A stretch of DNA of 64,000 nt. It comes from Myxococcota bacterium (GTDB taxonomy: Bacteria > Myxococcota_A > Polyangia > Polyangiales > JANWZI01). Each line of letters opens with the position of its first letter. Position 1 is the stretch's first letter. The stretch is taken from NCBI GenBank assembly GCA_025054695.1, contig JANWZI010000010.1, positions 592-64,591 on the forward strand. Direction: 5' to 3'. A program made the translations under genes and the position numbers. The notes beneath the pieces were generated by a model. It saw only the letters and a program-made list of their open reading frames with translations. It searched no databases and was not told where the DNA came from. Below, one piece after another: positions 2,311 through 58,671 of the stretch.

Positions 2311-2438
2311 GTCACAGCGGTTGACGTAACCAAGGGGCGTTGCGAGACCGAGACCGAGCTCGACTCCGAGACGGAGACCGAGACCGCGTTCGAGTACGAG
2401 CTGCAACCGCCGTCGATCAACCTGGCCCCCGCTGTGAC
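2311..2438. repeat. Hexamer-repeat element, copy 1: (GAGNCC)x10 core at 2344-2403 bracketed by an imperfect inverted repeat
   Basis: Units read gagacc gagacc gagctc gactcc gagacg gagacc gagacc... GTCACAGCGG (2311-2320) is the exact reverse complement of CCGCTGTGAC (2429-2438). The element is intergenic, between convergent genes. A degenerate tract in the opposite orientation continues at about 2490-2642. Confidence 0.85.
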
Positions 2439-2702
2439 CTCCGCGGTCGGATTGTTCGATGCAGGCTCCTGAACGCGATCGGTGTCGAATACCGTCTTGC
2501 TCTTCGGACTCGAACAACCCCTCGGCACTGGCAGCCGGAGCGCTCGGCACTGTGGCTTTGGCTCGGACGTCGGTGGGGGATCGGTGCCGCGACGGAGTCA
2601 CGCCCGACCGGCGCAACGGCCTTGGGCTCGAGCTCGGACGCCCCCCAAGGCGCGATCCTCAGGCGCCGTAGTACGCCCGGTCGAGTGCACCGAGGTCCGC
2701 CG

Positions 2703-3098
2703 TCAAGTGGCGACGAAGTCCTTCTCCTGTCGCTCCTGATCTTCTTTGCACCGGATGCAAAGCGTCGTTTCCGGGCGCGCCTCGAGCCGCTTGACGTGGA
2801 TATCTTCTCCGCAGGATTCGCAGATCCCGAAGGTTCCATCCTCGATCCGCTTGAGGGCCTTGTCGATCTTGGCGAGCAACCCCCGCTCGCGCCCACGCAG
2901 CCGAAACTCGAACGACTGGATGTACTCGCTCGACGCCAGGTCCATCTCGTCGGGAAGGTCGTTGGTGTCCAGCGTCATCGTTTCCTCGTTGAGCATCTCG
3001 CGCGCCCGTGCCAGCACTTCGGCTCGTCGCTCCTCGAGGATCTTCTTGAACCGCTTGAGGTCGGACTTCTTGATGGGCTCGCTCTTCTTGGTCGGCAT
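2703..3098 (-). CDS. dksA: DksA/TraR-family C4 zinc-finger transcription factor
   Basis: This is the 131-aa C-terminal part of ORF 2703..3818, starting at MPTKKSEP (ATG 3098). It has a coiled-coil region and CESCGEDIHVKRLEARPETTLCIRC. Confidence 0.85.
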   Translation of the reverse strand: MPTKKSEPIKKSDLKRFKKILEERRAEVLARAREMLNEETMTLDTNDLPDEMDLASSEYIQSFEFRLRGRERGLLAKIDKALKRIEDGTFGICESCGEDIHVKRLEARPETTLCIRCKEDQERQEKDFVAT

Positions 3099-3157
3099 CG
3101 AGGACTCCCGGAAACGACCAGCGGGAAGCCCAACAATGGAGGAGCGCGTCAACGTCG

Positions 3158-3952
3158 TCAAGAGCGTCGCGCACCCCGATGTGGCGCGCCGGGCGCCGCG
3201 TCGGAAGACGATTCGTTCCCGGCCGTCCGGTGCATCTCGGAGAGGAGTCGGAGGGCCGCGAGCGGGTCCAGGGGGAGCGTCCAGGGGCCGGATCGCGTGG
3301 GCGCTGCGAGCGCCTGGCCCAGGGCCTGCAAAAACCGGGGACGCGGCCATGGTTCCGCGCCGAATCGCGCCAGATGCTCGGTCGGGACCTGACAGTCGAC
3401 GAGGGAAAATCCCCAGTGCAGCAGATTGCCGACGAGCGTGACGAAAGCGACCTTGGAGGCGTCCGGCTCCAGGCTGAACATCGATTCCCCGAAAAAGACA
3501 CGGCCGAGGGACAGACCGTACAGGCCTCCGACGAGGCGGCCGCGTGACCACGCCTCGACGCTGTGCGCCAGACCGGCGCGGTGCAGCTCCAGGAACCCCA
3601 GACGCAACGATGTCGAGATCCACGTGCCCTGCTGCCCGGGACGTCGGACGGTCGCGCATCCGGCGATGACGCGATCGAACGCGGTGTCGGCACGCACCTC
3701 GAATCTCCCACGCCGAATGGTGCGCGCGAGCGAGCGGGAGACGTGCACGCGTTCGGGCACGAGCACGAATCGCGGGTCGGGCGAGAACCACAGCAGCTCC
3801 GCTCCCCGCGCGGGCCACGGAAAGATGCCGCTCGCGTACGCGAGGATCAGGCGCTCGGGCCTGAAATCTCCGCCGATGGCGACGAGGCCTTCCGGTCCGC
3901 CCGCGTCGGCGGGCGGGAAGCGCAGCTCCGGCCCGAGCCGGTAGACGGGCAC
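3158..3952 (-). CDS. aat: Leucyl/phenylalanyl-tRNA--protein transferase
   Basis: 264-aa ORF carrying GIFPWP, GGLYGLSLGRVFFGESMF and VDCQ motifs typical of Aat. It lies directly downstream of clpA. Confidence 0.85.
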   Translation of the reverse strand: MPVYRLGPELRFPPADAGGPEGLVAIGGDFRPERLILAYASGIFPWPARGAELLWFSPDPRFVLVPERVHVSRSLARTIRRGRFEVRADTAFDRVIAGCATVRRPGQQGTWISTSLRLGFLELHRAGLAHSVEAWSRGRLVGGLYGLSLGRVFFGESMFSLEPDASKVAFVTLVGNLLHWGFSLVDCQVPTEHLARFGAEPWPRPRFLQALGQALAAPTRSGPWTLPLDPLAALRLLSEMHRTAGNESSSDAAPGAPHRGARRS

Positions 3953-3956
3953 GCCT

Positions 3957-6239
<2,283 letters not shown>

Positions 6240-6250
6240 GGCTCGCTCTG

Positions 6251-6589
6251 CTAGCTTCGGTCGTCCGGCTCCATCGTCAAGAGCAGGGGGAACTCCTGCT
6301 CGCGCGCCAGACGGTGGACCGTCGCGATCTTGGTCTCGGCCACCTCGCGCGTGTAGACGCCCGCGACGCCCACCCCGTGGTTGTGGACCTGCAGCGTGAG
6401 CGTCCAGGCGTCCGTGTCGGACTTGTGGAAGACGGTCTTGAGGATCGCCACGACGAACTCGTGCGTGGTGTAGTCGTCGTTGTGGATGAGCACGCGGTAC
6501 ATTCGCGGTCGCTCGAGCCGCGTCGTCCGCTCCGGCTCGAGCACCGTCGCGTCACCGTCCTCGGGACGTGGCCTCGTTCGCTCCGCCAT
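6251..6589 (-). CDS. clpS: ATP-dependent Clp protease adaptor ClpS
   Basis: Contains MYRVLIHNDDYTTHEFVVAILKTVF...HNHGVGVAGVYTREVAETK. The start is uncertain: ATG 6589 overlaps the upstream ORF by 38 nt, and GTG 6544 is an alternative. Confidence 0.88.
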   Translation of the reverse strand: MAERTRPRPEDGDATVLEPERTTRLERPRMYRVLIHNDDYTTHEFVVAILKTVFHKSDTDAWTLTLQVHNHGVGVAGVYTREVAETKIATVHRLAREQEFPLLLTMEPDDRS

Positions 6590-7016: not shown

Positions 7017-7022
7017 GGGGGC

Positions 7023-9547: not shown

Positions 9548-9614
9548 AGCGTCCCGCAGGCAGCCGTCGCTCCGAATGGATACCGGGACGCCCGAAGCGC
9601 CTCGTGGCGCCTGC

Positions 9615-9725
9615 GCGTGTCTCGGGTGCGCGCTGCCGTCCGAGTGTCCGATTCGATCTCGGGTTCGGTTGCGGGGACCCGTCTCGGTCTCGCGATCGCG
9701 TTGTCGGATCGGCCCGAACCGTCAA
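9615..9725. repeat. Degenerate short copy of the hexamer-repeat element
   Basis: Sequence reads gtgtctcggg...gtccgagtgtccgattcgatctcgggttcgg...cgtctcggtctcgcg. It ends in GTCAA (reverse complement TTGAC) overlapping the stop codon of the 9722 gene. It is intergenic. Confidence 0.4.
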
Positions 9726-10336: not shown

Positions 10337-10390
10337 CGCGCCGCGATCTCCCCATCACGGTCGCGTTGGGTCAAGTGGCACGTCGGGGGC

Positions 10391-10534
10391 GGCCTCGGGC
10401 TCGGCATCGGAATCGACCTCGGCCTCGGACTGGGTCTCGGTCTCGGAATCGAACTCGGACTCTGATTCGGACTCGGCCTCGGACTCGGGCTCCGTCTCGG
10501 CGTTGGCCTCGGTCTTGTTTTCGGGCTCTCGGCC
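10391..10534. repeat. Hexamer-repeat array (complement orientation, CTCGGN units)
   Basis: Sequence reads ggcctc gggctc ggcatc ggaatc gacctc ggcctc ggactg ggtctc ggtctc ggaatc... It is intergenic, with a flank CTTGGTT (reverse complement AACCAAG) at 10542-10548. Confidence 0.85.
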
Positions 10535-10591
10535 TTGCGCTCTTGGTTCCTCAGACTTCGCCCTGCGAATTGCGCTCTGCGACGGCCTCGG

Positions 10592-11191: not shown

Positions 11192-11333
11192 CGGCCTTCA
11201 TATACCCCCAGGCGCCCGGCCGGTGGGCAGCAGCTACACGGCCCGCCGCCGTATCCGGTCGTCGGGTCCGTGCTGTGCATGGGCTCGGAGACGTTGGCCA
11301 CGGCCGAGTTCCTCATGCTAGCGTGCGCGCGCC

Positions 11334-15351: not shown

Positions 15352-15359
15352 GGGCAGCG

Positions 15360-15929: not shown

Positions 15930-15969
15930 AGCGGTCGAACGGGCTCCCGCGCCCGACCGTGAAAGAAAA

Positions 15970-19221: not shown

Positions 19222-19317
19222 ATCGGGCGCGGGGAGCTGCGCCGCGGTCAACCGCACGGCGAGAGAAGAGGGCGAGGACGCACGGCGCACCTCGGCTTGC
19301 TGCACGGTGGGGGAGGG

Positions 19318-19570
19318 GTTGGGCTCGGAGTCAGGCTCGGGCTCGGACTCGGACTCTGGCTCGGACTCTGGCTCGAACTCGGTCTCGGACTCGGTCCCGG
19401 ACTCGGACTCGGACTCGGTCTCGGACTCGGGCTCGGACTCGGGCTCGGAGTCGGGCACCGACTCGGCCTCGGTCTCGGCCTCGGCCTCGGACACAGACAC
19501 GGAGTCAGGCTCGGGCTCGGACTCTGGCGCGGACTCGGTCTCGGTCCGGGAGTCGGCCTGGGGCTCGGCC
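19318..19570. repeat. Hexamer-repeat array (complement orientation), about 40 units; the largest in the window
   Basis: Sequence reads gggctc ggagtc aggctc gggctc ggactc ggactc tggctc ggactc... It is intergenic between two plus-strand genes. The right flank contains GCGACCGTGTCCCGG. Confidence 0.9.
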
Positions 19571-19673
19571 ACGCCGCGCCGTCGTCTGGAATCGCGCGAC
19601 CGTGTCCCGGACCGATGCGCGTGCACCGGCTGCCCGTCGACGGGGCGCGCCGTGGCGCCTATGCTGCGCGGCG

Positions 19674-20369
19674 ATGAACCGTCGTGAGATCCTGCGCGCC
19701 GCCCGGGACTATCTCCGCCGCCATCCCGAGGAAATCGGGCGCATCGTGCGCAGCGCCTTCGGGCTGCGCCTGGGCGTGCCTATCGACGCGCTGCGGTGGT
19801 TGGCGTCCCGACTCGCGGACGGAGTGCGCGCGCAGGACGTGCGGATCGAGGCCGTTCCGCCGGGATTGCGCCTGGAGGCCACCGTCGCGCTGATGGGGAC
19901 GAGCGTGCGCGCGGGTGCGGTGGTGCACGTCGAGCGCGTGATCGCGACCGGGGGCGCGCTTCGCGTCGAATTGCGTCTGGAGGACGTGCGCCTGCGCCTG
20001 ATCGACGAGACGGCGTCGACGCCCGTCGCGATGCTGATCCGCTCCGGCGCGCTCGACCTGTCGCGACCGGGCGATTTGATCCGACACCTGCCGCGACTGC
20101 CGCCGTGGCTCGTCGAGGCGTCGGGACGTCGCGTCGTGCTCGATTTCGCTCGCCACCCCGCCATCGCCGAGCACCCCGGAGCGCGGGCCGCCGTCGAGCT
20201 GTTGACGTCCCTGGTGACGGTTCACGGCGTCGAGACCGACGAGGAGCACCTCGACGTCTCGCTGCGCGCGTTGCCGAGCGGTCTGCGGGTGGCCGCGCGC
20301 AACGTGCGCCAGCACGTCTTGCGCCCGGGCCTGCGACGCGCGCGCCTGCTGCTCACGGCGGGCCGCTGA
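19674..20369 (+). CDS. Hypothetical protein
   Basis: This is the C-terminal 231 aa of ORF 18510..20369, starting at ATG 19674 ([20 protein letters not shown]). The upstream part of the listed ORF crosses the repeat array. Confidence 0.5.
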
Positions 20370-21704: not shown

Positions 21705-22220
21705 TCAACTCCACAATAGCCGCACGGCGCGCGGCACGTCGGTGTGACAGACGACCTCGCAGTCCTTGCACCCGTGCGGGAAGCGTTCGTCCTCGCAGCT
21801 ACCGCACTCGCGCAACCGGCCGAGCGTACGCACGAGCTCGTCGCGCAGACCCCGCAACCTCGCGATCCGGTGCTGGAGCTGCTCGATCCGCTCCTCCAGA
21901 ATGGCCGTCATTCGGCGGCTGGCCTCCTCGGGTCGGTCGCAACCCGACTTGAGCCCGAACAGGTCGCGGATCTCGGAGAGCGACAGCCCCGCTTCGCGCA
22001 GATCGAGGATGAGGCGGAGCCTGTCCAGCTCGGTGCGCTCGAAGAGCCGGTGCCCGCCGTCGCTTCGACCCACGGGGCGCAACAGCCCCGCCTCCTCGTA
22101 GAAACGCACCGTGCGCAGCGTGCTCTTCGACAGCCGCGCGAGCTCGCCCGTCGTCAACAGGCGATCGTCGCCCACGTCCTGCTCATATAGGGACGACGGC
22201 TCGACGGCGCAACGAGGCAA
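21705..22220 (-). CDS. MerR-family transcriptional regulator with a C-terminal Cys cluster
   Basis: Contains LTTGELARLSKSTLRTVRFYEEAGLL. The C-terminus reads RECGSCEDERFPHGCKDCEVVC. Its stop lies 7 nt before the folE start. Confidence 0.8.
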   Translation of the reverse strand: MPRCAVEPSSLYEQDVGDDRLLTTGELARLSKSTLRTVRFYEEAGLLRPVGRSDGGHRLFERTELDRLRLILDLREAGLSLSEIRDLFGLKSGCDRPEEASRRMTAILEERIEQLQHRIARLRGLRDELVRTLGRLRECGSCEDERFPHGCKDCEVVCHTDVPRAVRLLWS

Positions 22221-22230
22221 GCGTGCCCGT

Positions 22231-22366
22231 CCGACACCGAGACCGAGCCCGAGTCCGAGCCTGAGTCCGAGTCCGAGTCCGAGTCCGAGCTGGAGCGCGA
22301 GCCCGAGCCTGAGGCCGAGTCCGAGACCGAGAGCGAGACAGAGACAGAGACGGTGACGGAGTCCGG
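22231..22366. repeat. Hexamer-repeat array (GAGNCC orientation)
   Basis: Sequence reads gacacc gagacc gagccc gagtcc gagcct gagtcc gagtcc gagtcc... It is intergenic and ends 5 nt before the stop of the 22371 gene. Confidence 0.85.
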
Positions 22367-22370
22367 CCCG

Positions 22371-32257: not shown

Positions 32258-32326
32258 TCGGGAGTCGGTCTCGGACCCGGCCTCGGACTTGGGCTCAGGT
32301 TCGGACACAGAACCGGGCTCGGGATC
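32258..32326. repeat. Hexamer-repeat array (complement orientation)
   Basis: Sequence reads tcggga gtcggt ctcgga cccggc ctcgga cttggg ctcagg ttcgga... It begins 11 nt after the hutH stop. The right flank contains GCGACCCATGTGATCCGCG. Confidence 0.75.
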
Positions 32327-32431: not shown

Positions 32432-33037
32432 TCAATCGTCGGGCCCGTTCGCTTCGAACGCCGAGCTGATCTCTTCCCACGACGGCACGAGGCTGCTCGG
32501 CGCGACGGTCGCGACGTGTAGTCGCAGCACGACGCGCGCGACCGGGGACGTCTGCGAGAAATTGCCGCGGCGGCCCCGGGGATTCTCGAAGACCGCCTCG
32601 GAGCCGGGACGGGGAAATGGATACGAGATCTCGATGCGGTCGCCGCTTCGGTGCTGGCCGCCCACCAGGCGCAGCCCAAGCATCGGATGGCGACGCACAA
32701 CCCGGCGCGTGGTCCGGTCGAGCACCTCGACGCACGTCATCTGCGGGTCGAGCACGTAGACGTGATTCTGCGTCCAGATCTCGAAGACCTTCCACGGCGT
32801 CTCGAGGCTCGGCGACGGCCCGTGCGAATGGACGACCTCGACCTCGAGCATGGGCTTGCCCCGCGCGCGACGCGGGGAAAGCGACGGCGACGGGGGACGA
32901 AGAGCCATGTCGGTGGTCGTGATCGAGGCGTCGATGGGAACCGAGACGCGCTGCTCGACCGGGCGCGGGTCGGCAATGCCGACCAGGGTCGTCGGGGTGC
33001 GCCGCTGACTCACGCGCTGACCGTACAACGATTCCAC
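32432..33037 (-). CDS. Hypothetical protein
   Basis: 201-aa ORF with a GTG start and non-repetitive composition (WKVFEIWTQNHVYVLDPQMTCVEVLD). I recognise no family. Confidence 0.5.
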   Translation of the reverse strand: MESLYGQRVSQRRTPTTLVGIADPRPVEQRVSVPIDASITTTDMALRPPSPSLSPRRARGKPMLEVEVVHSHGPSPSLETPWKVFEIWTQNHVYVLDPQMTCVEVLDRTTRRVVRRHPMLGLRLVGGQHRSGDRIEISYPFPRPGSEAVFENPRGRRGNFSQTSPVARVVLRLHVATVAPSSLVPSWEEISSAFEANGPDD

Positions 33038-33084
33038 TGCGGGTGTCTCGCCGCAACCGTGATCCGGTGCGATTCGCTCCAGGG

Positions 33085-33286
33085 CCCGAGACCGAGCCCG
33101 ACTCCGAGACCGAGACCGAGTTCGAGTCCGGGTCCGAGCCCGAGCCCGAGCCCGAGTCCGGGTCCGAGCCCGAGACCGAGACCGAGACCGAGTCCGAGTC
33201 GGAGTCCGGGACCGAGTCCGAGACCGAGTCCGGGTCCGAGACCGAGTCCGAGCCCGAGCCGGAGTCCGAGACCGAGACCGAGCTCG
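33085..33286. repeat. Hexamer-repeat array (GAGNCC orientation), about 33 units
   Basis: Sequence reads cccgag accgag cccgac tccgag accgag accgag ttcgag tccggg tccgag... It is intergenic. The left flank is GCAACCGTGATCCGGTGCGATTCGCTCCAGGGC. Confidence 0.9.
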
Positions 33287-34151: not shown

Positions 34152-34184
34152 TCGACTCGGTCTCGGACTCGAGCTCGAGCTCGC
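34152..34184. repeat. Short hexamer-repeat tract in a divergent gap
   Basis: Sequence reads tcgact cggtct cggact cgagct cgagct cgc. Confidence 0.5.
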
Positions 34185-34300
34185 AGTACCCGTCGGCCAC
34201 GTCAAGCCACGTGACCGCCGCTGCGAGGGGTCATTGCACCTGAGCGAGAGGCGAGCTCGGGTGCGAGCGTTGACGATCCCTGGGACGTCGCACGACGATC

Positions 34301-35400: not shown

Positions 35401-35490
35401 CGCGGACTCGGCCTTGCCCACGGACCCCGCGCTCGGCTCAACCCCCGTCACGGATGCGGGTGTGGACCTGGACTCCGACTCGGTCGCGGG
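35401..35490. repeat. Degenerate remnant of the hexamer-repeat element
   Basis: Sequence reads gcggactcggcc...GTCACGGatgcGGGTGTggacctggactccgactcggtcgcgggc. It lies in a convergent gap. Confidence 0.35.
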
Positions 35491-38426: not shown

Positions 38427-38516
38427 GGGGGCGATTTACGCACGAGGTCGTGCGCGCGACAACGGCGGTGTTTCCCGTGCGCGCGCAGGCTATTCTCACG
38501 CGACGGAGGCGAGACG

Positions 38517-40991
38517 ATGCGGGGTCGGACGCACGGCTGGGCGTGGATCGTCGCGGTTGCCGTCGGCGCCGGCGGTTGCGAGGCGTGCAAGGACTTCTTC
38601 GACGCCGGCGACGACGGCGACGACGACTCTCCTCGAAACCTCGGCGTCGGGGACGCATGCCGGCGCGCCAGCGAATGCCGCGTCGGGCTCGGCTGCATCG
38701 GGGGCACGTGTCAGCCCCAGGGGCTCGGCGTCGAGGGCTCGACGTGTCAGCTCACGGGCGACTGCGGGGCGGGGCTGTACTGCGCGCGCTCGCGAACGTG
38801 CGAGCGCGCCGGCGACGCGATGGCCGGGGACGACTGCCGTGCGACGGCGGACTGCGCTCCGGGACTCGTCTGCACGCTCGAGGGGCTCGGCGGGCGGTGC
38901 AGACCCGCCGGCAGCGCCGACATCGACGAGCCGTGCACGCGCCTGCTCGATTGCCTGGCCGGCCTCGAATGCAGGCCGGGTCGGGACGGACGCCCGGGTC
39001 ACTGCATCAATCCCGCGCCGGTGGCCTCCGGGGACGGCGGGTCCGGAGGGCTCGTTCCGGGGCTTCCGTTCTGGCCCGGGGAGCGGTGCACGGACGAAGG
39101 CGCACCGGCGCGCGCGTTGTTCGAGGTACCGCGCTTCGACGGCAGCGACGGCGACTTCTACCGGTTGCCATTCCCGAACGACATCCGGCGCAGACCCGAC
39201 GGACTCGACCTGCGCGGGCATCCGTCGCCCGCGACCGTGCTCGAGGTCGACATCATCGACCGGTATCTACGCGCTTCCGAGCGCGACCTGCGCGGCTTCT
39301 CGCTCAATCCCACGATTTACTTCCGCTTCAGCGAGCCGTACGACTGGGCGAGCGTCGAGGGGCAGCTTCGCATCGTCGACGTGACGCCGGGCTCGCCCGA
39401 TTACGGGCGGACGATGGCGCTGGCGTGGCTGACGACCGCCGGGCCCATCACGCGTTATCTGTGCGAGGACTGGCTCGCGTTGCGCGTCCCCCACGGCGCT
39501 CCGTTGCGCCCCGCGACCACGTACGCGGCCATCGTCGGCTCCGGCGTGCGCCCCGCGCCGTCGGTCGGCGGGCGCTTCGCGCGCTCGCCCGACCTCGACG
39601 CCGTGCTCGGGTCGACCGCTCCGTCCGACCCGGTGCTCGCGGCGGCCCACGCCGCGTATGCGCCGCTGCGCGCCTGGCTCGCCGATTCGGGTACCGATCC
39701 CGGCGAGGTGCTCAACGCGGCCGTCTTCACGACGCAGCCGCTCGGCGCGCTCGTGCCCGCGTTGCGCGAGGTCATCCGTGGCCGGCCGGCTCCGGCCGTC
39801 GGCGAGGCCGTGCTGTGCGACGGCAGCCGCCGCTCGCCGTGCGACGACGGGACGCCGCAGCGCGCGTGCGGCACGCCCGTCTCCGGGATCCGCGAGATCC
39901 ATGGGCGGATCGAGCTACCCATCTTTCAGCATGGTCGCGCGCCGTACGAGGAGCCCGACGACGGCGGCGGGCTCCAGCTCGACGCGAGTGGCCGACCCGT
40001 GGTCGCTCGGACCGAGGCCGTTTGCTTCGGGCTCGCGTTGCCCGACGGTCCGACGCCTGCCGGCGGATGGCCCCTGCTGATCCACGCGCACGGCACCGGC
40101 GGCAGCTTCCGCGACGGTTTGTCGTGGTCCGCCGACCTGAACGCCGCGGTGCTGGGCATCGATTTGCCGCAGCACGGAGCGCGACGCGGGGGCAGCCGTC
40201 GCTCGCCGGACGTGCTGTTCTTCAACTTCGTCAATCCGCCGGCCGCGCGCGACAACGTGACCCAGGGGGCGGCCGACCTGCTCGCGCTCGTCCACTTCGC
40301 CGTCTCCGGCCGGATCGAGGCCAGCGCGAGCCCGACCGGGGAGGCCATCGCGTTCGACCGGAGTCGCATCGTGCTGTTCGCGCATTCGCAGGGCGCGACG
40401 CACGCGGCGCTGATCGTGCCGCACGAGCCCGACTTGCGCGCGGTCGTGTTCAGCGGCCTGGGCGGCGACCTGACGCAGTCGCTGCTGCACAAGCGCGAGC
40501 CGGTGGACATCGCCGCGCTGCTGCCGTTCGCGCTGCTGGACCCGGATGCGTCCGGAGCGCTCGCGGCCGGGGACTTCCATCCCGCGCTCGCGCTGTTCCA
40601 GGGCTACTTCGACGCGGTCGACGCGGTCAATCACGCCGCCGCGCTCGTGCACCGCAGACCGATGGCCGGCGGCGCGCCGCACGTGTTCATGACGTACGGC
40701 CTCGGCGACAGCTTCTCGCCCGAGCCGACCATGCAGGCGTACGCGCTGGCGGCGGGACTGACGGCCGTGCGCCCGGTGCACGTCGAGTTCGGTCTGCGCG
40801 CCGCCGACCCGCCGCTCCGGGGCAACGAAATGGCGGCGAGCGGACCGCGCACCGTCGGGCTTCGGCAGTACCGGCCCGAATCGGGGGCCGACGGGCACTT
40901 CGTCGCGACGAGCGGACCGGGACGCGCCGACGTGGAGGCCTTCTTGCGCGCGGCGCTCGCGGGCGACGTCCCGTCGATCGGCACGCCATGA
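38517..40991 (+). CDS. Secreted lipoprotein: N-terminal Cys-rich repeats plus an alpha/beta-hydrolase domain
   Basis: Lies in ORF 35826..40991. I chose ATG 38517 after GGAGG (MRGRTHGWAWIVAVAVGAGGC). Repeated C-x-C modules include GDACRRASECRVGLGCIGGTC, GSTCQLTGDCGAGLYC and GDDCRATADCAPGLVC. Hydrolase motifs are LIHAHGTGGS and FAHSQGA. Confidence 0.7.
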   Translation: MRGRTHGWAWIVAVAVGAGGCEACKDFFDAGDDGDDDSPRNLGVGDACRRASECRVGLGCIGGTCQPQGLGVEGSTCQLTGDCGAGLYCARSRTCERAGDAMAGDDCRATADCAPGLVCTLEGLGGRCRPAGSADIDEPCTRLLDCLAGLECRPGRDGRPGHCINPAPVASGDGGSGGLVPGLPFWPGERCTDEGAPARALFEVPRFDGSDGDFYRLPFPNDIRRRPDGLDLRGHPSPATVLEVDIIDRYLRASERDLRGFSLNPTIYFRFSEPYDWASVEGQLRIVDVTPGSPDYGRTMALAWLTTAGPITRYLCEDWLALRVPHGAPLRPATTYAAIVGSGVRPAPSVGGRFARSPDLDAVLGSTAPSDPVLAAAHAAYAPLRAWLADSGTDPGEVLNAAVFTTQPLGALVPALREVIRGRPAPAVGEAVLCDGSRRSPCDDGTPQRACGTPVSGIREIHGRIELPIFQHGRAPYEEPDDGGGLQLDASGRPVVARTEAVCFGLALPDGPTPAGGWPLLIHAHGTGGSFRDGLSWSADLNAAVLGIDLPQHGARRGGSRRSPDVLFFNFVNPPAARDNVTQGAADLLALVHFAVSGRIEASASPTGEAIAFDRSRIVLFAHSQGATHAALIVPHEPDLRAVVFSGLGGDLTQSLLHKREPVDIAALLPFALLDPDASGALAAGDFHPALALFQGYFDAVDAVNHAAALVHRRPMAGGAPHVFMTYGLGDSFSPEPTMQAYALAAGLTAVRPVHVEFGLRAADPPLRGNEMAASGPRTVGLRQYRPESGADGHFVATSGPGRADVEAFLRAALAGDVPSIGTP

Positions 40992-42285: not shown

Positions 42286-43053
42286 GTGGGCCACGTCGTC
42301 GCCGTCGCCAATCAAAAGGGCGGGGTCGGCAAGACCACGACGGCGGTGAACCTGTCGGCGAGCCTCGCGGTGACCGACCAGCGGGTCCTGCTGGTGGACG
42401 TCGATCCGCAGGGCAACGCGACCAGCGGCCTCGGGCGCTCGCCCCGGCGGCTGCAACGCGGGACGTACGAGGTGCTCGTCGAGGGTCTTCCGATCGCCGA
42501 GGCGGAGCTCGCGACCGAGCTGCCCGCGCTGCGGCTCGTGGGCGCGAGCCACGACCTGGCGGGAGTCGAGCTCGAGCTGTCTTCGGCGCCGGATCGAGCG
42601 GAGCGGTTGCGTGCGGCGCTGCGTCCGCGTCGGGACGCGTACGATTTCGTCGTCATCGACTGTCCCCCGTCCCTCGGTCTGCTCACGCTCAACGCGCTGG
42701 TCGCCGCCGATCTCGTGCTCGTGCCGATGCAGTGCGAGTACTACGCGCTCGAGGGGCTCTCGCAGCTCGTCGAGACGGTCGAACGGGTGCGCGCGACGCT
42801 CAACCCCGCGCTTCGGATCCACGGGGTGCTGCTGACGATGTACGACGCGCGCAACAACCTCGCGTTGGAGGTCGCCGCCGAGGTGCGCCGCCACTTCCCG
42901 GTCTACGAGACGACCATTCCGCGCAACGTGCGCCTCGCCGAGGCGCCCTCGCACGGCAAGCCGGTGCTGCTGTACGACGCCTCGTCGCGCGGCAGTTACG
43001 GATACCTGAGCCTGGCGCGCGAGCTGCTCGGCGCGCTTCCGGGAGGGCCGTGA
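42286..43053 (+). CDS. parA: Chromosome partitioning ATPase ParA (Soj)
   Basis: GTG start after AAGGAGAG. Contains VANQKGGVGKTTTAVNL and DCPPSLG. Confidence 0.92.
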   Translation: MGHVVAVANQKGGVGKTTTAVNLSASLAVTDQRVLLVDVDPQGNATSGLGRSPRRLQRGTYEVLVEGLPIAEAELATELPALRLVGASHDLAGVELELSSAPDRAERLRAALRPRRDAYDFVVIDCPPSLGLLTLNALVAADLVLVPMQCEYYALEGLSQLVETVERVRATLNPALRIHGVLLTMYDARNNLALEVAAEVRRHFPVYETTIPRNVRLAEAPSHGKPVLLYDASSRGSYGYLSLARELLGALPGGP

Positions 43054-43919
43054 GCAGTCCGGAGTCGCGTCGTCCGCGCCTCGGGCGGGGTCTCGATGCG
43101 ATTCTGCCGGTTCCGGCCGGCTCCTCGGGCCATGGCGGAAGCGGCGGCGCGCTCGAGTTGCCCATCGAGGAGCTGCATCCGAATCGGGCCCAGCCGCGTC
43201 GTCGTTTCGACGAGGCCGCACTCGACGAACTGGCTCAGTCGATCCGGTCGGTGGGCGTGCTCGCGCCCATCGTCGTGCGGCGACGCCCCGCTGGAGGCTA
43301 CGAGATCGTCGCGGGCGAGCGCCGCTGGCGTGCGGCGCAACGCGCGGGGCTGCGCGCGGTGCCCGTTGTGATCCGCGAGCTGACGCCGGCCGAAGCGCTC
43401 GAGGCCGCGCTCGTCGAGAACGTCCAGCGCGAGGACCTCGAGCCGCTTGAGCTCGCGCGGGCCTACCAGCAGATGATCGAGTCGCACGGCTACACGCAGG
43501 AGCGCCTGGCGGCGCGTGTCGGTCGCGACCGCTCGACGATTGCCAACGCCCTTCGACTGCTTCGCCTTCCGCCGGAGGTGCTGGCGCTGCTCGAGGAGCG
43601 GCGCATCGACGAGGGCCACGCCCGCGCGCTGCTGCAGGCCGCAAGCCCCGCCGAGATGATTCGTCTGGCACGCATGGCGGCCGAGCGCGGGCTGTCGGTG
43701 CGTCAGGTCGAGGCGCTCGCCCGCGCCTCGCGTCAATCCGAACGCCCCGCCTCGCGCGCGGAGCGCACCCCGAGCGCGAACGTGCGCGACCTGGAGAACC
43801 GACTGCGGCGCTCGCTGGGGGTGCAGGTGCGCGTGGTCGACCGCAAAGGCCGCGGTCGCATCGAGCTCAACTACGGCAGTCTCGACGAACTGGACCGGTT
43901 GCTTGCGCGCCTGCTTTGA
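43050..43919 (+). CDS. parB: Chromosome partitioning protein ParB (Spo0J)
   Basis: This is the C-terminal part of ORF 42267..43919, starting at GTG 43050, which overlaps the parA stop as GTGA. Contains LGRGLDAIL, GERRWRAA and an HTH (QERLAARVGRDRSTIANALRLL). Confidence 0.9.
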   Translation: MSSPESRRPRLGRGLDAILPVPAGSSGHGGSGGALELPIEELHPNRAQPRRRFDEAALDELAQSIRSVGVLAPIVVRRRPAGGYEIVAGERRWRAAQRAGLRAVPVVIRELTPAEALEAALVENVQREDLEPLELARAYQQMIESHGYTQERLAARVGRDRSTIANALRLLRLPPEVLALLEERRIDEGHARALLQAASPAEMIRLARMAAERGLSVRQVEALARASRQSERPASRAERTPSANVRDLENRLRRSLGVQVRVVDRKGRGRIELNYGSLDELDRLLARLL

Positions 43920-43921
43920 GG

Positions 43922-45108: not shown

Positions 45109-45264
45109 GAGCCAGAGCCCGAGTCCGAGCCCGAGCTCGAGCCCGAGCCCGAGTCCGAGTCCGAGCTCGAGCCCGAGTCCGAGCTCGAGTCCGAGCTCGA
45201 GCCCGAGCCCGAGTCCAAGTCCGAGACCGAGACCGAGTCCGAGTCCGAGTCTGAGTCCGAGTCC
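45109..45264. repeat. Hexamer-repeat array (GAGNCC orientation), 26 units, in the rplS/uppP divergent gap
   Basis: Sequence reads gagcca gagccc gagtcc gagccc gagctc gagccc gagccc gagtcc gagtcc gagctc... The left flank is GTGACCAAGGG (45078-45088), and the right flank contains GTGATCGATGC. Confidence 0.92.
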
Positions 45265-49023: not shown

Positions 49024-49033
49024 CGGCCCTCGC

Positions 49034-49158
49034 GTTGCTTGACGTGGCCGACGGGTGTCGCGAGCCCGAGTCCGAGGCAGAGTTCGCGCCCAAGTCCGAG
49101 CCCGAGCCCGCGTCCGAGTGGGCGCCCCGGTCAACCACCTTCCCACGCGCCGTGACAC
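49034..49158. repeat. Hexamer-repeat element: flank box, (GAGNCC)x10 core at 49062-49121, and an inverted right arm
   Basis: The left flank is GTTGCTTGACGTGGCCGACGGGTGTCGCGAG. On the right are GTCAACC (49130-49136) and CGTGAC (49151-49156). The element starts 11 nt after the protease stop. Confidence 0.8.
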
Positions 49159-49285
49159 GCGCCGGTGCCGCCGCAAGCGCCCCGAGCGCCGACGACGGGG
49201 TCTCGGGCAGGCGTTCGGGCTCGTGACGTCCCGGTCGCCGGGTCGGAGCGAAGCGGGGTCGACCCAGGCGTCCGATGCCGGGAAG

Positions 49286-52183: not shown

Positions 52184-52228
52184 TCGCGACGTGCCGGAAC
52201 CGATCGAACTGGCAACACGGAGAGGCCA

Positions 52229-52321
52229 TCGGACTTGCACTCGCGATCGGCCTCGGTCTCGGGTCTCGGCCTCGGTCTCGGGCACGGTCTCGGGACCAGG
52301 CCCGGAGTCCGGCTCGGCTCC
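52229..52321. repeat. Hexamer-repeat array (complement orientation)
   Basis: Sequence reads tcggac ttgcac tcgcga tcggcc tcggtc tcgggt ctcggc ctcggt ctcggg cacggt ctcggg... It is intergenic. Confidence 0.75.
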
Positions 52322-52547
52322 AGCACGGTGGATGACGCGCGTCACGCGGATCGCGCCGTTAGCGTGCGTCGCGGCCCGGGACATGCGCGACGCATTCGTC
52401 GGGATCGGAGCTGGCCCTGTGTACAACGCTTCTCGCTTCCGCTATGTGCGATGGGGTGACCGTCGATCGGTCGATGTCGTCGCTGCCGAGGCGCAGCGGA
52501 GCGCATGGTGCGCCTGTTTCGTGCGAGCCGCCCTCGAGGTCCGTGCC

Positions 52548-53333: not shown

Positions 53334-53624
53334 GATGGCACGTGCATGCGCCGAATCGTTCGTTCGCGCGCAGACGTTGGGGTTCCAATCCGCGCTCCGG
53401 GTCGGCCTCGGGGCCGGCGTCGGGCGGGGTTCCGCGAGATGGTTCGAGCTCGCGAGCTCGCTCGCATCCGGCGTTCGGTCCGCCCGGGCCGCCGCGTACG
53501 GAAGGTCGCGTCACGACGGCGTAAGAAACCTGACGGGTGGGTCACGAACGTCTCCCTGCGTCGCGCGAATCGTGCGCGCACCGGGGCGGAATGCTGGCAC
53601 GGACATTGATGATGGGGGCGAGGC

Positions 53625-55724: not shown

Positions 55725-55851
55725 TCGAGCGCATGGGTGTGGCACGGCTTCGTCGTTCCGCGATGCGCGTGGCGGCTTGGCCGACGCGCGCGACGCGACG
55801 GCGATCCTGGTTGCCTACCGCACGCCGGCGCTGAGATAGTCTGCGTTGAAG

Positions 55852-56811: not shown

Positions 56812-56890
56812 ACGGAGACGGTCGACTGCCCTGCAACGGCGGGCATTGGACACGGAGACAAACGCCGGCGTACGATTTGCAAGGAGAGCC

Positions 56891-57505
56891 ATGGCCGCCG
56901 AAGCACACAGCCTGCCCCAGCAGGATGCGCGCCCGGAACCGCCGAAGCGTCGCCTGCGGAATTTCCTGCTCGATGCGCGCTTCCAGCTCAAGTACACGGG
57001 CATGGTCGTCCTGGTGACGGCCATCACCGGGGGCGTGCTCGGCTACTTCGCGTACGACTTTTCCGTCGGGCAGACAGAGATGATGACGATAGGCTGGGCG
57101 ATGGACGGTCGTGCGGAGCAGGAAATCGTCGAGATGGCGAGGGCGCACGACCGAAAGGTGCTGCTTTCCATCGTGGCCGGGATCGGGATCTTGGTGGTCG
57201 CGCTGGGGCTCACGGGAATCGTCGTCACCCACCGCGTCGTCGGCCCCGCCTACAAGATGAAGAAGCTCTTGCAGGAGGTGCAGCAGGGGCATCTCCGCGT
57301 CTCCGGCAGGCTCCGCAAGGGCGACGAATTGCAGGATCTGTTCGAAGCGTTCAGCACCATGCTCGCCTCGCTGCGGGAACGCCAGCAGGCCGAAGTCGCC
57401 CAGCTTGACGCGGCGCTCGAGCGCGCGCGCGCCGAGGGGGTCTCGAGCGAGGCGCTTCGCGACATCGAACGCGTGCGCGACCGGATGCGGGCCGAGCTGG
57501 AGTGA
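56891..57505 (+). CDS. Membrane protein with a HAMP domain
   Basis: Lies in ORF 56699..57505, starting at ATG 56891 after AAGGAGAG. It has two TM helices, then VVTHRVVGPAYKMKKLLQEVQQGHLRVSGRLRKGDELQDLFEAFSTM. Confidence 0.65.
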   Translation: MAAEAHSLPQQDARPEPPKRRLRNFLLDARFQLKYTGMVVLVTAITGGVLGYFAYDFSVGQTEMMTIGWAMDGRAEQEIVEMARAHDRKVLLSIVAGIGILVVALGLTGIVVTHRVVGPAYKMKKLLQEVQQGHLRVSGRLRKGDELQDLFEAFSTMLASLRERQQAEVAQLDAALERARAEGVSSEALRDIERVRDRMRAELE

Positions 57506-57521
57506 CCGTGCGTCGAGGTCC

Positions 57522-58193
57522 TTAACGCGGTGCAGGCGCTCCGCACGAAGGACACGTGGTGTCGTAGATCGCCATCGACTTGCCGCAGAACCGGCAGGCG
57601 ACGGTGCCCGGCGCGGATCCTGCCCGGAGCGGTGTGAGGGTTCGGGCCGACCGATCGCTCGAAGGAGCGAGGATCCACACGCGCGCGTCGTGGAGATCGT
57701 CGTCGCGCGCGGAGCCGATCGTGCGAAGCGCCACGGCGATCGCATCGGCGACGGACGCGGCCGCCGTCGCGAACAGCGCTCGTCGCGCACGCACGGCGAA
57801 GCCGACGAGCAGCGCGCGCGGGTCGTCGACCGGCGCCACAAGGGGCTCGGGCTCGGTGCCGATCCAGCCATGCGTCGCCTCGGGCAGCGCGCGCAGCAGT
57901 TCCAGGGCCGCGTCGCGCGCCGATCCGCGGTGTCCCATCCGGCCCGCCAGGGCCTGCACGCTCGCGCGCACGCCCGGTGCGTGATCCGGACCGAACGCGA
58001 GCACGACCGTGACGGTCGTGCTCGATGCAGGCGTGATCGCCCCGACGGGGCGCTCGCCGTCAGTCGCGTTTTCGGCTCGACGTTCGCGGCCGCGACGCAG
58101 CAGGCCGAGTACCGCGAATGCGCCGAGCAACACAAGGACCAACGCGACGCACGCGCAGGCGAGGACGACGGCGCTGCCGCCGTGGGCCTCCAT
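57522..58193 (-). CDS. Hypothetical membrane protein with a C-terminal zinc ribbon
   Basis: 223 aa with an N-terminal TM (VVLACACVALVLVLLGAFAVLGLL). The C-terminus reads CRFCGKSMAIYDTTCPSCG. Confidence 0.5.
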   Translation of the reverse strand: MEAHGGSAVVLACACVALVLVLLGAFAVLGLLRRGRERRAENATDGERPVGAITPASSTTVTVVLAFGPDHAPGVRASVQALAGRMGHRGSARDAALELLRALPEATHGWIGTEPEPLVAPVDDPRALLVGFAVRARRALFATAAASVADAIAVALRTIGSARDDDLHDARVWILAPSSDRSARTLTPLRAGSAPGTVACRFCGKSMAIYDTTCPSCGAPAPR

Positions 58194-58333
58194 GGACGTG
58201 GCTGCTTACCTCGAAGTCCACGTCACGGTCCACGGTTCGGTGGGGGTTGCAGGCGCGGCGGGGCACGCGCTCGTGCATGAAGCGATGATGCGTCTCGCAC
58301 GGGGCGAACGCGGTCTCAGCGTTGCCCTGGGTT

Positions 58334-58552
58334 TCGGAGTGTGTCTCGGGCTCGGACTCGGACTCGGGCTCGGACTCGGTCTCGGACATGGACACGGACA
58401 CGGACTCAGACACGGTCTCGGACTCGGAATCGGACTCGGTCTCGGTCTCGGGCTCGGGCTCGGGCTCGGACTCGGTCTCGCGCTCCGACTCCGGCTCCGA
58501 CTCGGGCTCGGGCTCGGTCTCCGACTCGGACTCGGTCTCGGGCTCGGACTCG
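58334..58552. repeat. Hexamer-repeat array (complement orientation), about 36 units; the full element is about 58320-58626
   Basis: Sequence reads ctcggg ctcgga ctcgga ctcggg ctcgga ctcggt ctcgga... The right flank is CTCGCAACTCTCCTCGGCTACGGCAAGCAAC (58549-58579). CCCTGGGTTTCGG (58325-58337) is repeated as CCCTGGccagGTTTCGG (58610-58626). Confidence 0.92.
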
Positions 58553-58671
58553 CAACTCTCCTCGGCTACGGCAAGCAACGTGACAGCCGCGATCAGAGTC
58601 GGGTCCGAACCCTGGCCAGGTTTCGGGCTCACGGATCCGAGCGCCAGAACGGCAGGACGGCCTCGACGCGC

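Follow-up and report, generated by a model that had tools for sequence, protein, structure and literature searches.

In the genome of an uncultured myxobacterium (Myxococcota), tandem arrays of a hexamer, GAGNCC or its complement GGNCTC, are scattered through a 64,000-nt stretch of contig JANWZI010000010.1 (the window), and the locus raises the question of what these arrays are and how they came to lie where they do. They look like an apparently undescribed, lineage-specific family of bacterial microsatellites, and translation, mobility and function in transcripts or in protein binding have to be weighed as other accounts of them.

Extent and placement of the arrays

An earlier note on the window had listed 12 arrays, all of which are real: Tandem Repeats Finder (TRF) reports arrays of period 6, 12, 18 or 30 at every listed site, and a four-unit GAGNCC pattern with at most 2 mismatches gives 140 matches, all within the 12 sites, against 0.01 expected from shuffles. 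The arrays, their recognisable ends and the degenerate copies, with the strand on which GAGNCC is read, are as follows.

2344-2403, +: array of ~10 units in the convergent gap 2266-2702 (TRF, pattern matches)
~2306-2343 and ~2404-2440: head and tail of array 2344-2403 (head and tail alignments)
2594-2642, -: degenerate relic array in the same gap as the 2344 array, in opposite orientation
10391-10534, -: array of ~20 units in a tandem (-) gap, GAGNCC on the sense strand (TRF, pattern matches)
19318-19570, -: ~40-unit array in the tandem (+) gap 19222-19673, higher-order period 12 nt, GGNCTC on the sense strand, between the stop codon 19219-19221 and the following ATG at 19674 (TRF score 242; six-frame view)
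22231-22366, +: array of ~21 units filling most of a 195-nt tandem (-) gap, beginning 5 nt past the upstream stop codon
29175-29267, +: array of ~12 units in a tandem (-) gap (TRF, pattern matches, called genes)
32258-32326, -: short degenerate array of ~8-10 units in a convergent gap (TRF, pattern matches)
33082-33286, +: 33-unit array, higher-order period 30 nt, most of a 276-nt tandem (-) gap (TRF score 247 at period 30)
34152-34184, -: short GAGCTC-rich array of ~5 units in a divergent gap (TRF, pattern matches)
~34185-34222: head of array 34152-34184, holding the exact 18-mer 34188-34205
35401-35490, -: possible decayed array, marginal (4 of 8 in-phase units, P ~0.02 against coding-sequence nulls)
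45109-45264, +: 25-26-unit array, higher-order period 30 nt, in the divergent gap that separates the L19 gene from uppP
49062-49121, +: array of ~10 units in a tandem (+) gap (TRF, pattern matches)
~49024-49061 and ~49122-49160: head (with the exact 18-mer 49039-49056) and tail of array 49062-49121
52229-52321, -: degenerate array of ~15 units with one indel, most of a 148-nt tandem (+) gap, ending 10 nt short of the next start codon
53385-53425, -: possible decayed array, marginal (4 of 8 in-phase units, P ~0.01)
58334-58552, -: array of ~36 units in the tandem (-) gap 58194-58671 (TRF score 213)
~58553-58590: degenerate head of the 58334 array

The arrays range from 5 to 40 units without a preferred size, those at 32258-32326 and 34152-34184 being short and weak (5-8 units), and their period-6 match is only 67-87% (TRF), with a unit divergence of 13-33%. 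Every array that scores at least 80 in 73 kb of the genome is of the GAGNCC type. The arrays are no assembly artefact: run SRR15826901 has an independent Logan assembly that matches array 2344-2403 exactly, flanks included. Among the degenerate copies proposed earlier, only 2594-2642 held up, as the sole supported part of a range given as 2490-2642: it has 5 of 8 in-phase units with at most 1 mismatch, a score reached by no null segment, and makes inverted-repeat pairs with the 2344 array. The copies at 35401-35490 and 53385-53425 are marginal, and 9615-9725 was found to have no in-phase support.

The density is ~1 array per 5 kb. In agreement with the previous hand counts of a third to a half of the gaps and about 1.5 kb, arrays occupy 12 of the 35 gaps of at least 50 nt and total 1,521 nt of 8,283 nt of intergenic DNA; when an uncalled aat gene is counted, the denominator is ~7,490 nt and the arrays stand at the upper end of an 18-20% share. 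The gene map used here combines the gene calls of the source contig (GCA_033577305.1, a Sandaracinaceae-like MAG) with a GC-frame map for 30-41 kb. As had been claimed, every copy is intergenic: 12/12 window arrays lie in gaps between called genes, and the genome holds no in-frame copy inside a conserved CDS. Five further arrays in 19 kb flanking the window are likewise between genes, giving 17/17 in 82.7 kb of contig, where intergenic DNA is only ~12-13% and the chance of all-intergenic placement is ~0.13^17. All gap types are used (in the window 8 of the 21 tandem gaps, 2 of the 5 convergent and 2 of the 9 divergent ones; 9 tandem, 5 convergent and 3 divergent for the 17 arrays), and both orientations are present, 6:6 on the + strand of the window. 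Among the arrays in tandem gaps, 6 have GGNCTC on the sense strand and 3 have GAGNCC. The arrays are strictly intergenic and unbiased in orientation.

A preference for gene 3' ends is possible: ~5 of 8 convergent gaps hold arrays and 7 of 9 tandem-gap arrays lie closer to the upstream stop codon, small numbers that do not reach significance. This trend would suit arrays that act as transcript elements in the manner of REP or STRR repeats, being co-transcribed with their neighbours and forming long imperfect hairpins that would shield upstream mRNA against 3' exonucleases or reduce read-through. We consider such a role unlikely. It is favoured by folding better than that of shuffles on both strands, by terminator-like sites at shuffle level (4 vs 4.1 and 6 vs 4.7) in a genome without canonical hairpin-plus-U terminators, by the filling of short same-strand gaps that may belong to operons (e.g. 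22176-22370 and 52184-52331), and by the same role, as transcript stabilisation or translational coupling, having been proposed for cyanobacterial STRR arrays (PMC2670836). However, divergent gaps contain no 3' ends and yet house three of the arrays, the positional trends fall short of statistical significance, and relatives do without arrays.

Coding potential

The arrays are untranslated. In none of the reading frames does a start codon precede all 12 arrays; it is missing from the E-x frame in 5/12 and from the [DGV]-S frame in 3/12. The previous statement that the arrays have no stop codon in any frame applies to perfect units and fails for the actual arrays, in which the x-R frame of the GAGNCC strand is stopped in 6/12 and two further frames are each interrupted in a single array. 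The ETEPES, SDSDSG, GLGLGL and PSPSPS pseudo-ORFs do derive from the arrays, as was suggested.

A coding role, with acidic or Ser-rich low-complexity peptides made from small ORFs or as unannotated linkers at the N or C terminus of neighbouring proteins, or an origin as decayed remnants of such coding repeats, is very improbable. The E-x and antisense [DGV]-S frames are open in 12/12 arrays, their third codon positions being G or C throughout, and position 6 of the unit, a third codon position in either frame, varies more than the other four kept positions. Comparable arrays of other genomes, at loci L102 and L113, are plausibly N-terminal extensions of real proteins, and a genome scan found GAGNCC or its complement in coding arrays of Streptomyces, Nocardia, Halomonas and others, with uniform EPEP, EAEA and GSGS arrays inside genes of Streptomyces and other phyla. 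These (EP)n, (EA)n and (GS)n linkers employ the same DNA motif, but their units are largely uniform and in frame inside genes, whereas the mixed-unit Myxococcota arrays lie outside genes: 11/44 arrays are CDS-internal in other phyla vs only 1/34 mixed-unit arrays of Myxococcota loci. Also against translation, several E-x ORFs of 68-78 codons from stop to stop have no ATG, GTG or TTG ahead of the array, the frames that run on from neighbouring genes are, by third-position GC, not the coding frames of those genes, no array is preceded by a signal peptide or lipobox, and the contig's gene caller called none of the arrays.

Unit composition, growth and spread

The 222 units include 53 GAGTCC, 38 GAGCCC, 32 GAGACC, 9 GAGGCC and 8 GAGCTC; position 4 is T in 44%, C in 29%, A in 21% and G in 6%, and non-consensus bases occur in 5-16% of units at each of the other five positions. 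The heterozygosity calculated from these counts is 0.68 at position 4 vs 0.10-0.28 elsewhere. The units are non-identical, and the arrays are therefore not plain microsatellites. TRF scores at periods of 12, 18 or 30, varying among arrays, exceed those at period 6, and unit order is locus-specific with a higher-order block structure (12-30-nt periods). The longest string common to two arrays is 37 nt, within the 27-44 nt obtained from unit-order shuffles, so no array is a recent copy of another. Of the 110 departures from the higher-order consensus, 57 are at position 4, and variants at this position have been amplified 5-10 times more than single-base variants of the other five positions. The positional asymmetry seen in the earlier note is thus real; the constraint on the GAG..CC frame that it was taken to indicate is only suggested, because whole-unit indels in arrays of three unit types also confine apparent mismatches to position 4.

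The nearly free position 4 among five kept positions, and its share of the consensus departures, would also be consistent with a binding platform, in which each GAG..CC unit is a putative site for a lineage-specific DNA- or RNA-binding protein that leaves position 4 uncontacted. Candidates would be a nucleoid-associated protein that polymerises on the array, or a ring- or filament-forming protein that recognises GAG triplets at 3-nt spacing, much as Bacillus TRAP reads (G/U)AG repeats. Such a platform is unlikely. Arrays persist despite their unit divergence, a DNA-level site is consistent with orientation independence, and the same frame with a different position-4 mix occurs in several other Myxococcota MAGs, a conservation that is partly by construction since the cross-genome sample was retrieved by the GAGNCC pattern itself. 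On the other hand, relatives are without arrays, no length is favoured, whole-unit indels alone can focus apparent variation on position 4, no candidate protein was identified, and an RNA-level reader is hard to square with both orientations relative to transcription.

A mobile origin is raised by the sequences that border some arrays. Arrays 2344, 34152, 49062 and 58334 have in common a ~33-nt head directly 5' of the first GAG (76% mean column identity over 70 columns, including the first 2-3 array units; head-to-head alignment scores of 23, 19 and 15.5 vs a null 99th percentile of 12), and the array at L123:2801 has a more degenerate one. The exact 18-mer is found twice, both times adjacent to an array, a tail G[AG]TCAACC...GCGCCGTGAC can be discerned by eye in four arrays, and head and tail hold short inverted motifs (TTGAC/GTCAA and GTCAC/GTGAC). 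Together with a lineage-specific burst typical of mobile DNA, these features could indicate a small non-autonomous element of head, array and tail, with the array as variable core, mobilised by a transposase or a RAYT-like enzyme; where no ends can be recognised, the array would be an old copy. This origin is distinctly unlikely, with ends on only 4-5 of the 17 arrays, flanking inverted repeats not longer than random, no target-site duplication seen, and common unit order among arrays not above that of shuffled arrays. The head motif is missing at the other 124 loci, Kofleriaceae arrays have no common flanks, and TTGACG may be the organism's -35 promoter box.

The best explanation, in which our confidence is about even, is that the arrays are imperfect hexanucleotide microsatellites without coding function, which originated and expanded in their present positions. 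A short GAGNCC proto-repeat would have expanded by slipped-strand mispairing or unequal recombination, often in 2-5-unit blocks, aided by the partial self-complementarity of the motif (GAG[C/T]CC folded back would pair at 4 of 6 positions, like CNG triplet repeats). Arrays in coding sequence would be purged by selection, and those between genes would stay as spacer DNA and decay slowly; proliferation would have taken place in the source lineage and, independently or with other unit mixes, in a few other Myxococcota lineages. We infer that the arrays grew by slippage, that the fold-back hairpin drives this process and that the arrays have no required function. RNA folding z-scores of the arrays range from -0.9 to -5.1, with periodic stems of 2 pairs plus a mismatch, and in Myxococcus xanthus tandem-repeat unit changes make up 69% of spontaneous indels (PMC11069108).

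Growth by slippage accords with the intergenic-only placement, the lack of translation and of any orientation or gap-type rule, block duplication, locus-specific unit order, decayed relics, absence in relatives and fold-back potential. Other observations speak against it. Plain slippage leaves the expansion of one motif unexplained, as it does the 5-10-fold excess of position-4 variants. The common units GAGTCC (the top unit) and GAGACC are weaker folders than GAGCCC and GAGCTC, so hairpin strength does not rank the units. The arrays look old by their period-6 match and, because useless DNA is usually deleted from bacterial genomes, their persistence may indicate maintenance. The head and tail kept on 4-5 arrays are not predicted by in-place slippage, and the possible 3'-end preference also counts against it.

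Relatives and comparable repeat families

No arrays were found in ~105 kb from five relatives with 50-58% protein identity, including the complete genome of Sandaracinus amylolyticus, in which the orthologous gap holds a REP-like 43-nt hairpin repeat instead. Mixed-unit GAGNCC arrays, nearly always outside genes, do occur in several other Myxococcota MAGs. The arrays have no Rfam or tRNA matches, and no description of a GAGNCC array family was found in the literature searched, in line with the earlier failure to recognise a named family; REP/BIME, ERIC and CRISPR, dismissed at that time, indeed do not fit, their defining features being unmatched.

The closest analogue is the STRR heptamer arrays of heterocystous cyanobacteria, which likewise have very short tandem units at many dispersed intergenic sites and are lineage-specific, hairpin-capable and without established function. 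STRR units, whose copy number and distribution were reportedly described by Mazel et al. in 1990, have a length of 7 nt, which three does not divide, and come in a few fixed sequences, whereas GAGNCC units are 6 nt with one free position, G+C-rich, codon-like and found in Myxococcota, with no sequence relationship to STRR. The REP/BIME repeats of Enterobacteria and Pseudomonas are also high-copy, extragenic, hairpin-capable and present in both orientations, and tend to adjoin gene 3' ends. REPs are individual imperfect palindromes of 20-40 nt that RAYT transposases mobilise; the GAGNCC unit is in contrast not palindromic, array length is open-ended, and there is no evidence of a RAYT.

The MIRU/VNTR loci of Mycobacterium tuberculosis have units of 40-100 nt at ~40 loci per genome, and small ORFs overlapping the neighbouring stop and start codons have been proposed for them. 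GAGNCC arrays differ in their 6-nt unit and density and have no such overlapping ORFs. The two are alike as intergenic tandem repeats of a high-G+C genome, often between same-strand genes, with a unit length that is a multiple of 3 and open reading frames; for MIRU, the intergenic position, often between same-strand genes, and the open frames were reportedly noted by Supply et al. in 1997 and 2000. Hairpin-driven expansion is an established mechanism for CNG triplet repeats, and a folded-back GAGNCC strand similarly has 2 of every 3 positions paired, which would make slipped intermediates more stable and promote expansion. The CNG repeats are, however, eukaryotic, disease-associated and built of uniform triplets, whereas the GAGNCC arrays are mixed hexamers in which GAGTCC and GAGACC pair weakly.

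Composition and placement of the hexamer arrays

Tandem Repeats Finder (TRF) recovers arrays with a period of 6, 12, 18 or 30 at 12/12 primary coordinates in the window, and period-6 repeats of 7-35 copies, that is, head-to-tail units of no more than 6 nt, are present at all 12 sites; the GAGNCC arrays are simple sequence repeats, or microsatellites, as defined by a tandem unit of 1-6 nt. Every repeat in the window with a TRF score above ~70 is of the GAGNCC type. A search for four consecutive GAGNCC units with at most two mismatches yielded 140 matches, all within the twelve sites, against 0.01 expected from dinucleotide-preserving shuffles, which bears out the twelve arrays listed in an earlier note made by reading the sequence. 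Of the degenerate copies that the note had added, one (2594-2642) clearly exceeds background, two (35401-35490 and 53385-53425) do so only marginally, and 9615-9725 finds no support.

GAGNCC lies on the + strand in six arrays and on the - strand in six. Among 222 phased units, GAGTCC (53), GAGCCC (38) and GAGACC (32) prevail, followed by GAGGCC (9) and GAGCTC (8), and position 4 is occupied by T in 44%, by C in 29%, by A in 21% and by G in 6% of them. At positions 1, 2, 3, 5 and 6 of the same units, the non-consensus share is 5, 10, 8, 9.5 and 16%, respectively, and unit divergence within arrays amounts to 13-33% in a window with a G+C content of 71%. Array 2344-2403, together with 290 nt of flanking DNA, is reproduced base for base in an independent Logan assembly (run SRR15826901), which rules out an assembly artefact; GAGNCC arrays are also present in the genomes of isolates, Sorangium sp. 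So ce1014 among them.

Genes were called on the 136.6-kb contig JAVQYH010000004.1 (MAG GCA_033577305.1), in which exact protein matches place the window at bases 62,719-126,718, and for the 30-41 kb region our own gene map based on third-position GC was employed. According to these calls and this map, 12/12 arrays are located in gaps between genes, as the earlier note had claimed. In the window, arrays occupy 12 of the 35 gaps that measure 50 nt or more and 1,521 of 8,283 intergenic bases, a share that comes to ~20% once an uncalled transferase gene in an 858-nt 'gap' is counted. Beyond the window, there are four further arrays in 9.2 kb upstream and one in 10 kb downstream, giving a total of 17 in 82.7 kb, none of which overlaps a called gene. 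Because only ~13% of this DNA is intergenic and yet all 17 arrays are found there, the placement cannot be due to chance. Nine of the 17 are in tandem gaps, five in convergent and three in divergent ones; roughly 5/8 of the convergent gaps in the window and its flanks are occupied, although the numbers are small. In tandem gaps, the sense strand carries GGNCTC in six arrays and GAGNCC in three, and no orientation bias is apparent either on the window strands (6:6) or relative to transcription in these gaps.

Long microsatellites are rare in bacteria; in this window, one hexamer family accounts for about a fifth of intergenic DNA and is found only between genes. If the density of ~1 array per 5 kb is extrapolated, and not measured, to a genome several megabases in size, the copies would number roughly a thousand or more. 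In a survey of short tandem repeats across the tree of life, prokaryotic hexanucleotide repeats were enriched in genes rather than in intergenic regions (PMC12699852), so that an exclusively intergenic hexamer family is atypical.

Several observations on the gene context were made along the way:
3158-3952, - strand: clear ORF for a Leu/Phe-tRNA-protein transferase (Pfam PF03588, E = 7e-71) inside the 858-nt 'gap' of the contig annotation, a gene call that this annotation missed
3957-6239 and 6251-6589: ClpA and ClpS, adjoining the transferase ORF in an N-end-rule cluster
35826-40991, + strand: 1,721-aa ORF with good coding signal and no Pfam domain at E <= 0.001
42286-43919: parA-parB
L126:1-5588, contig DNA just past the right end of the window: recC-recB
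19674-20369, 32432-33037, 57522-58193 and 58672-59115: array-flanking genes without a Pfam match, among several such genes

The cumulative GC skew climbs steadily over the entire window, which therefore lies within one replichore, and the parAB genes suggest that it may be near the origin.

Coding capacity of the arrays

The repeat mimics high-G+C coding sequence: the frame GAG-NCC reads as Glu-Ser/Pro/Thr and the antisense frame GNC-TCG as Asp/Gly/Val-Ser, with G or C at all third positions. The claimed absence of stop codons from every frame holds for perfect units only; in the actual sequences, one frame has stops in 6/12 arrays, and the Glu-x frame and the antisense x-Ser frame are open through all of them. 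Translation would have to start from codons that are often missing. In 5/12 cases, the open Glu-x stretch contains no ATG, GTG or TTG ahead of the array, which rules out standalone Glu-x ORFs; in the x-Ser frame, a start codon upstream of the array is lacking in 3/12, and no frame has a start codon in all 12 arrays. Where arrays are open into a neighboring gene, the frame is never the coding frame of that gene, and neither a signal peptide nor a lipobox was found ahead of any array in the window, so linkers of lipoproteins or secreted proteins in the [DG]-S frame are excluded for this genome. The Gly-Leu frame, in which position 4 would be synonymous, is rejected because start codons are lacking and the preferred Gly codon, GGC, corresponds to the rarest form. 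Low-complexity linkers within proteins are likewise rejected, since the contig gene caller places no array inside a gene. Our conclusion for this genome is that the arrays do not encode protein, and translation, to which the two fully open frames would lend themselves, is scarcely credible.

Such stop-free pseudo-ORFs with high third-position GC can mislead gene callers and falsely extend N-termini. In Myxococcales MAG ACE_MYX12, two Asp/Glu-Ser hexamer arrays follow an ATG in frame at the protein N-terminus:
L102:153-260: array in a probable Xaa-Pro aminopeptidase (host identified by eye only)
L113:3221-3292: array in a probable RND-type transporter (host identified by eye only)

Intergenic arrays may on occasion be taken up as N-terminal extensions, which would be unsurprising for a repeat free of stop codons; otherwise, the repeats may mislead gene callers.

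Flanking motifs and comparison with known repeat families

Four arrays in the window share a head of ~33 nt (consensus GTCACGTTGCTTGACGTGGCCGACGGGTGTTGC) that abuts the first GAG, and an array in the upstream contig DNA (L123:2801) has the same head with a looser match:
2306-2343: head of array 2344-2403
34188-34205, - strand: 18-mer TTGACGTGGCCGACGGGT in the head of array 34152-34184
49039-49056, + strand: the same 18-mer in the head of array 49062-49121
58553-58590: head of array 58334-58552, which lies on the - strand
L123:2760-2800: head of array L123:2801

The two 18-mers are identical, and each ends 5-6 nt before its array. Head-to-head alignments score 23, 19 and 15.5, compared with 12 for the 99th percentile of random 60-mers. 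On the other side of four head-bearing arrays, a tail, G[AG]TCAACC...GCGCCGTGAC, is present. Head and tail, carried by 4-5 of the 17 arrays, both contain short mutually inverted motifs, and the head holds T(G/C)ACGT repeats spaced ~10 nt apart that resemble a regulator binding site. The hallmarks of a MITE or other small non-autonomous transposon are terminal inverted repeats and a target-site duplication around a conserved body. Inverted repeats flanking the arrays are generally no longer than random, no target-site duplication was seen at the arrays, the pattern GTCAC-N-TTGACG is not enriched, and no conserved RNA pairing of head with tail is predicted, the head forming only a weak small hairpin. 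The head motif is absent from all other loci, the Kofleriaceae arrays share no common flanks, and no transposase is found among the genes called in 82.7 kb of the contig. Head and tail may have been left by a seeding or mobile element, or they may represent a recurrent promoter or operator that arrays happen to adjoin; that head, array and tail together form a mobile element appears quite improbable.

Comparison with established families, based on their defining features, agrees with the statement of the earlier note that the arrays are not REP/BIME, ERIC or CRISPR. REP/BIME elements, which are associated with the RAYT (tnpA-REP) transposase, are discrete imperfect palindromes of 20-40 nt; here the unit is 6 nt, and arrays are quasi-palindromic only as a whole. 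The 6-nt periodicity does not fit the imperfect palindrome of ~127 nt that constitutes ERIC/IRU, and no such unit was found; nor does a period of 6-30 nt without spacers fit CRISPR arrays, with their repeats of 23-47 nt and unique spacers of like length. MIRU-type VNTRs have units of 40-100 nt and an ORF overlapping stop and start codons, as opposed to a 6-nt unit here, and in no frame does a start codon occur at the upstream stop throughout the arrays; the search for MIRU-like coupling ORFs across gaps was itself uninformative, as stop codons are scarce in every gap. Contingency (phase-variation) loci are uniform repeats in a promoter spacer or 5' coding region whose unit changes switch a gene on or off; the arrays do not fit, as their units are mixed, the unit length is a multiple of 3 and five arrays lie in convergent gaps, where promoters and start codons are absent. 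G-quadruplexes, which need at least four runs of 3 or more G with short loops, and i-motifs were dismissed by inspection of the unit spectrum: only GAGCCC (17%) yields a complementary GGG, and four consecutive runs are rare. No match to Rfam 15 covariance models at the gathering score and no tRNA or tmRNA gene was detected in the window, and a full-text literature search yielded no account of arrays of this kind in myxobacteria.

The closest analogue in behavior is the cyanobacterial STRR family, which consists of hairpin-prone tandem 7-nt units at many intergenic sites, with unknown function (PMC2670836). The GAGNCC arrays are hexamers rather than heptanucleotide repeats and belong to Myxococcota rather than cyanobacteria, so they are not members of this family, but by analogy they may work like STRRs.

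Growth, folding and distribution

For most arrays, the TRF score at 12, 18 or 30 nt exceeds that at 6 nt, with the best period varying from array to array, which points to the duplication of blocks of several units. The longest exact string common to two arrays is 37 nt, within the 27-44 nt obtained when the order of units is shuffled within arrays; recent copying between arrays is therefore excluded, and they must have grown in situ. In Myxococcus xanthus, indels arise mainly from slippage at tandem repeats (PMC11069108). When 150-nt slices were folded as single strands, either strand proved more stable than its dinucleotide shuffles (z from -0.9 to -5.1), and the predicted folds are long stems in which two pairs and one mismatch recur, because in folded-back GAG[C/T]CC positions 1-6 and 3-4 pair and A mismatches C. 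CNG triplet repeats have the same two-in-three pairing geometry.

The reading that we favor, at about an even chance, treats the arrays as imperfect, non-coding hexanucleotide microsatellites growing where they sit. Slipped-strand mispairing or unequal exchange would drive the expansion, fold-back pairing of the repeat strand would favor it, and arrays arising within genes would be purged, whereas those between genes would be tolerated and slowly decay. This reading does not account for the expansion of GAGNCC alone, for a free base at position 4 and nowhere else, or for the persistence of arrays despite 13-33% unit divergence.

Three further explanations are each compatible with slippage-driven growth. 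The arrays might serve as a platform for a putative DNA- or RNA-binding protein. Departures from each array's own higher-order consensus fall at position 4 in 57 of 110 cases, which does not prove constraint, since indels of whole units would produce the same pattern. TRAP, an MtrB-family protein, binds leader RNA at 9-11 GAG or UAG triplets set 2-3 nt apart; the arrays have GAG triplets at 3-nt spacing but reach 40 units, in both orientations and also in convergent gaps. A binding platform seems unlikely. Alternatively, the predicted stems could act in transcripts as a REP- or STRR-like hairpin element at 3' ends. Arrays in tandem gaps are closer to the upstream stop codon in 7/9 cases (median 46 nt, versus 104 nt to the next start codon), which together with the occupancy of convergent gaps gives a weak tendency toward 3' ends that is not significant at these small numbers, and neither consensus sigma-70 promoters nor hairpin-plus-U terminators exceed shuffles anywhere in the region, arrays included; we regard such an element as distinctly unlikely. 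The third of these explanations is the mobile head-array-tail element.

A scan of 185,579 species-representative genomes with six perfect units as the query retrieved at least 118 loci. Among the matches listed, about half are Myxococcota by record title, and the repeatedly matched MAGs include Kofleriaceae Gw_SlAct_bin_340 (at least 13 loci), TH-Jun18-119, ACE_MYX12 and HK-STAS-MYXO-49. Also among the matches listed, multiple mixed-unit arrays of the myxobacterial type occur in 'Planctomycetota' CA_2019_TPBS_156 (L009, L013, L030, L098), and likewise in 'Rickettsiales' binchicken_co141_42 (L041, L071, L074, L075, L093, L117), whose G+C content of 67-75% is implausible in that order and casts doubt on the label; either the labels of these bins are wrong or the family extends beyond Myxococcota. 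By a flank-coding test, the matches listed fall into two classes: of the mixed-unit arrays at Myxococcota loci, 1/34 lies inside a CDS; in other phyla, 11/44 do, typically as uniform EPEP, EAEA or GSGS linkers. The mix at position 4 is genome-specific, T > C ~ A >> G in the window genome and A > G > T > C in the Kofleriaceae bin. The apparent conservation of GAG..CC across lineages is partly circular, because the loci were retrieved with the GAGNCC motif itself.

For a 957-aa extensin-family protein, the best homologues, from MAGs of Sandaracinaceae and other Myxococcota, reach at most 58% identity (51% in Sandaracinus amylolyticus), which makes the window organism a deep, uncultured relative of Sandaracinus; JGI data contained no relative nearer than ~55% identity. 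In five relatives, including the complete S. amylolyticus chromosome, no GAGNCC array is present in ~105 kb around the orthologous extensin-family gene, which makes the arrays a lineage-specific bloom rather than an ancestral feature conserved in position.

A bolder and rather unlikely reading is that Myxococcota possess a sequence-specific repeat system, the GAG-N-CC arrays, which needs a putative trans-acting protein. Such a protein would either recognize the five kept bases and coat intergenic DNA or RNA, or else make and spread the arrays, with head and tail marking the seeding site. If true, this would explain the proliferation of a sole motif, the free position 4 and the separate blooms in several lineages, and a five-base frame that reflects binding or dedicated spreading would define a new class of bacterial genome-organizing repeat with a REP-like copy number. 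The arrays belong among the dispersed intergenic short tandem repeats and are notable for their density, motif specificity and recurrence in Myxococcota, and they make it possible to ask, in a clean bacterial setting, why a single motif expands when others do not. They likely break short-read assemblies and would make excellent loci for strain typing.

Other tandem repeats are found in related genomes. In S. amylolyticus (CP011125), the gap that follows the orthologous extensin-family gene, where the window genome has a hexamer array, contains instead (L120:12894-13230) 7.6 tandem copies of a 43-nt unit with a hairpin (CACCCGTC...GACGGGTG), a REP-like repeat that differs from the hexamer array. 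Tandem families with units of 12, 13 and 15 nt, such as GCGGTGATCGATGGC, TGCCCCTGCCCT and GAGGAGGATGGCC, are found in other Myxococcota MAGs, so that tandem-repeat proliferation in the phylum is not limited to GAGNCC:
L052:1167-1230: site of the 12-/13-/15-nt families
L006:2213-2357: site of the same families
L083:2489-2625: site of the same families
L113:7442-7812: site of the same families
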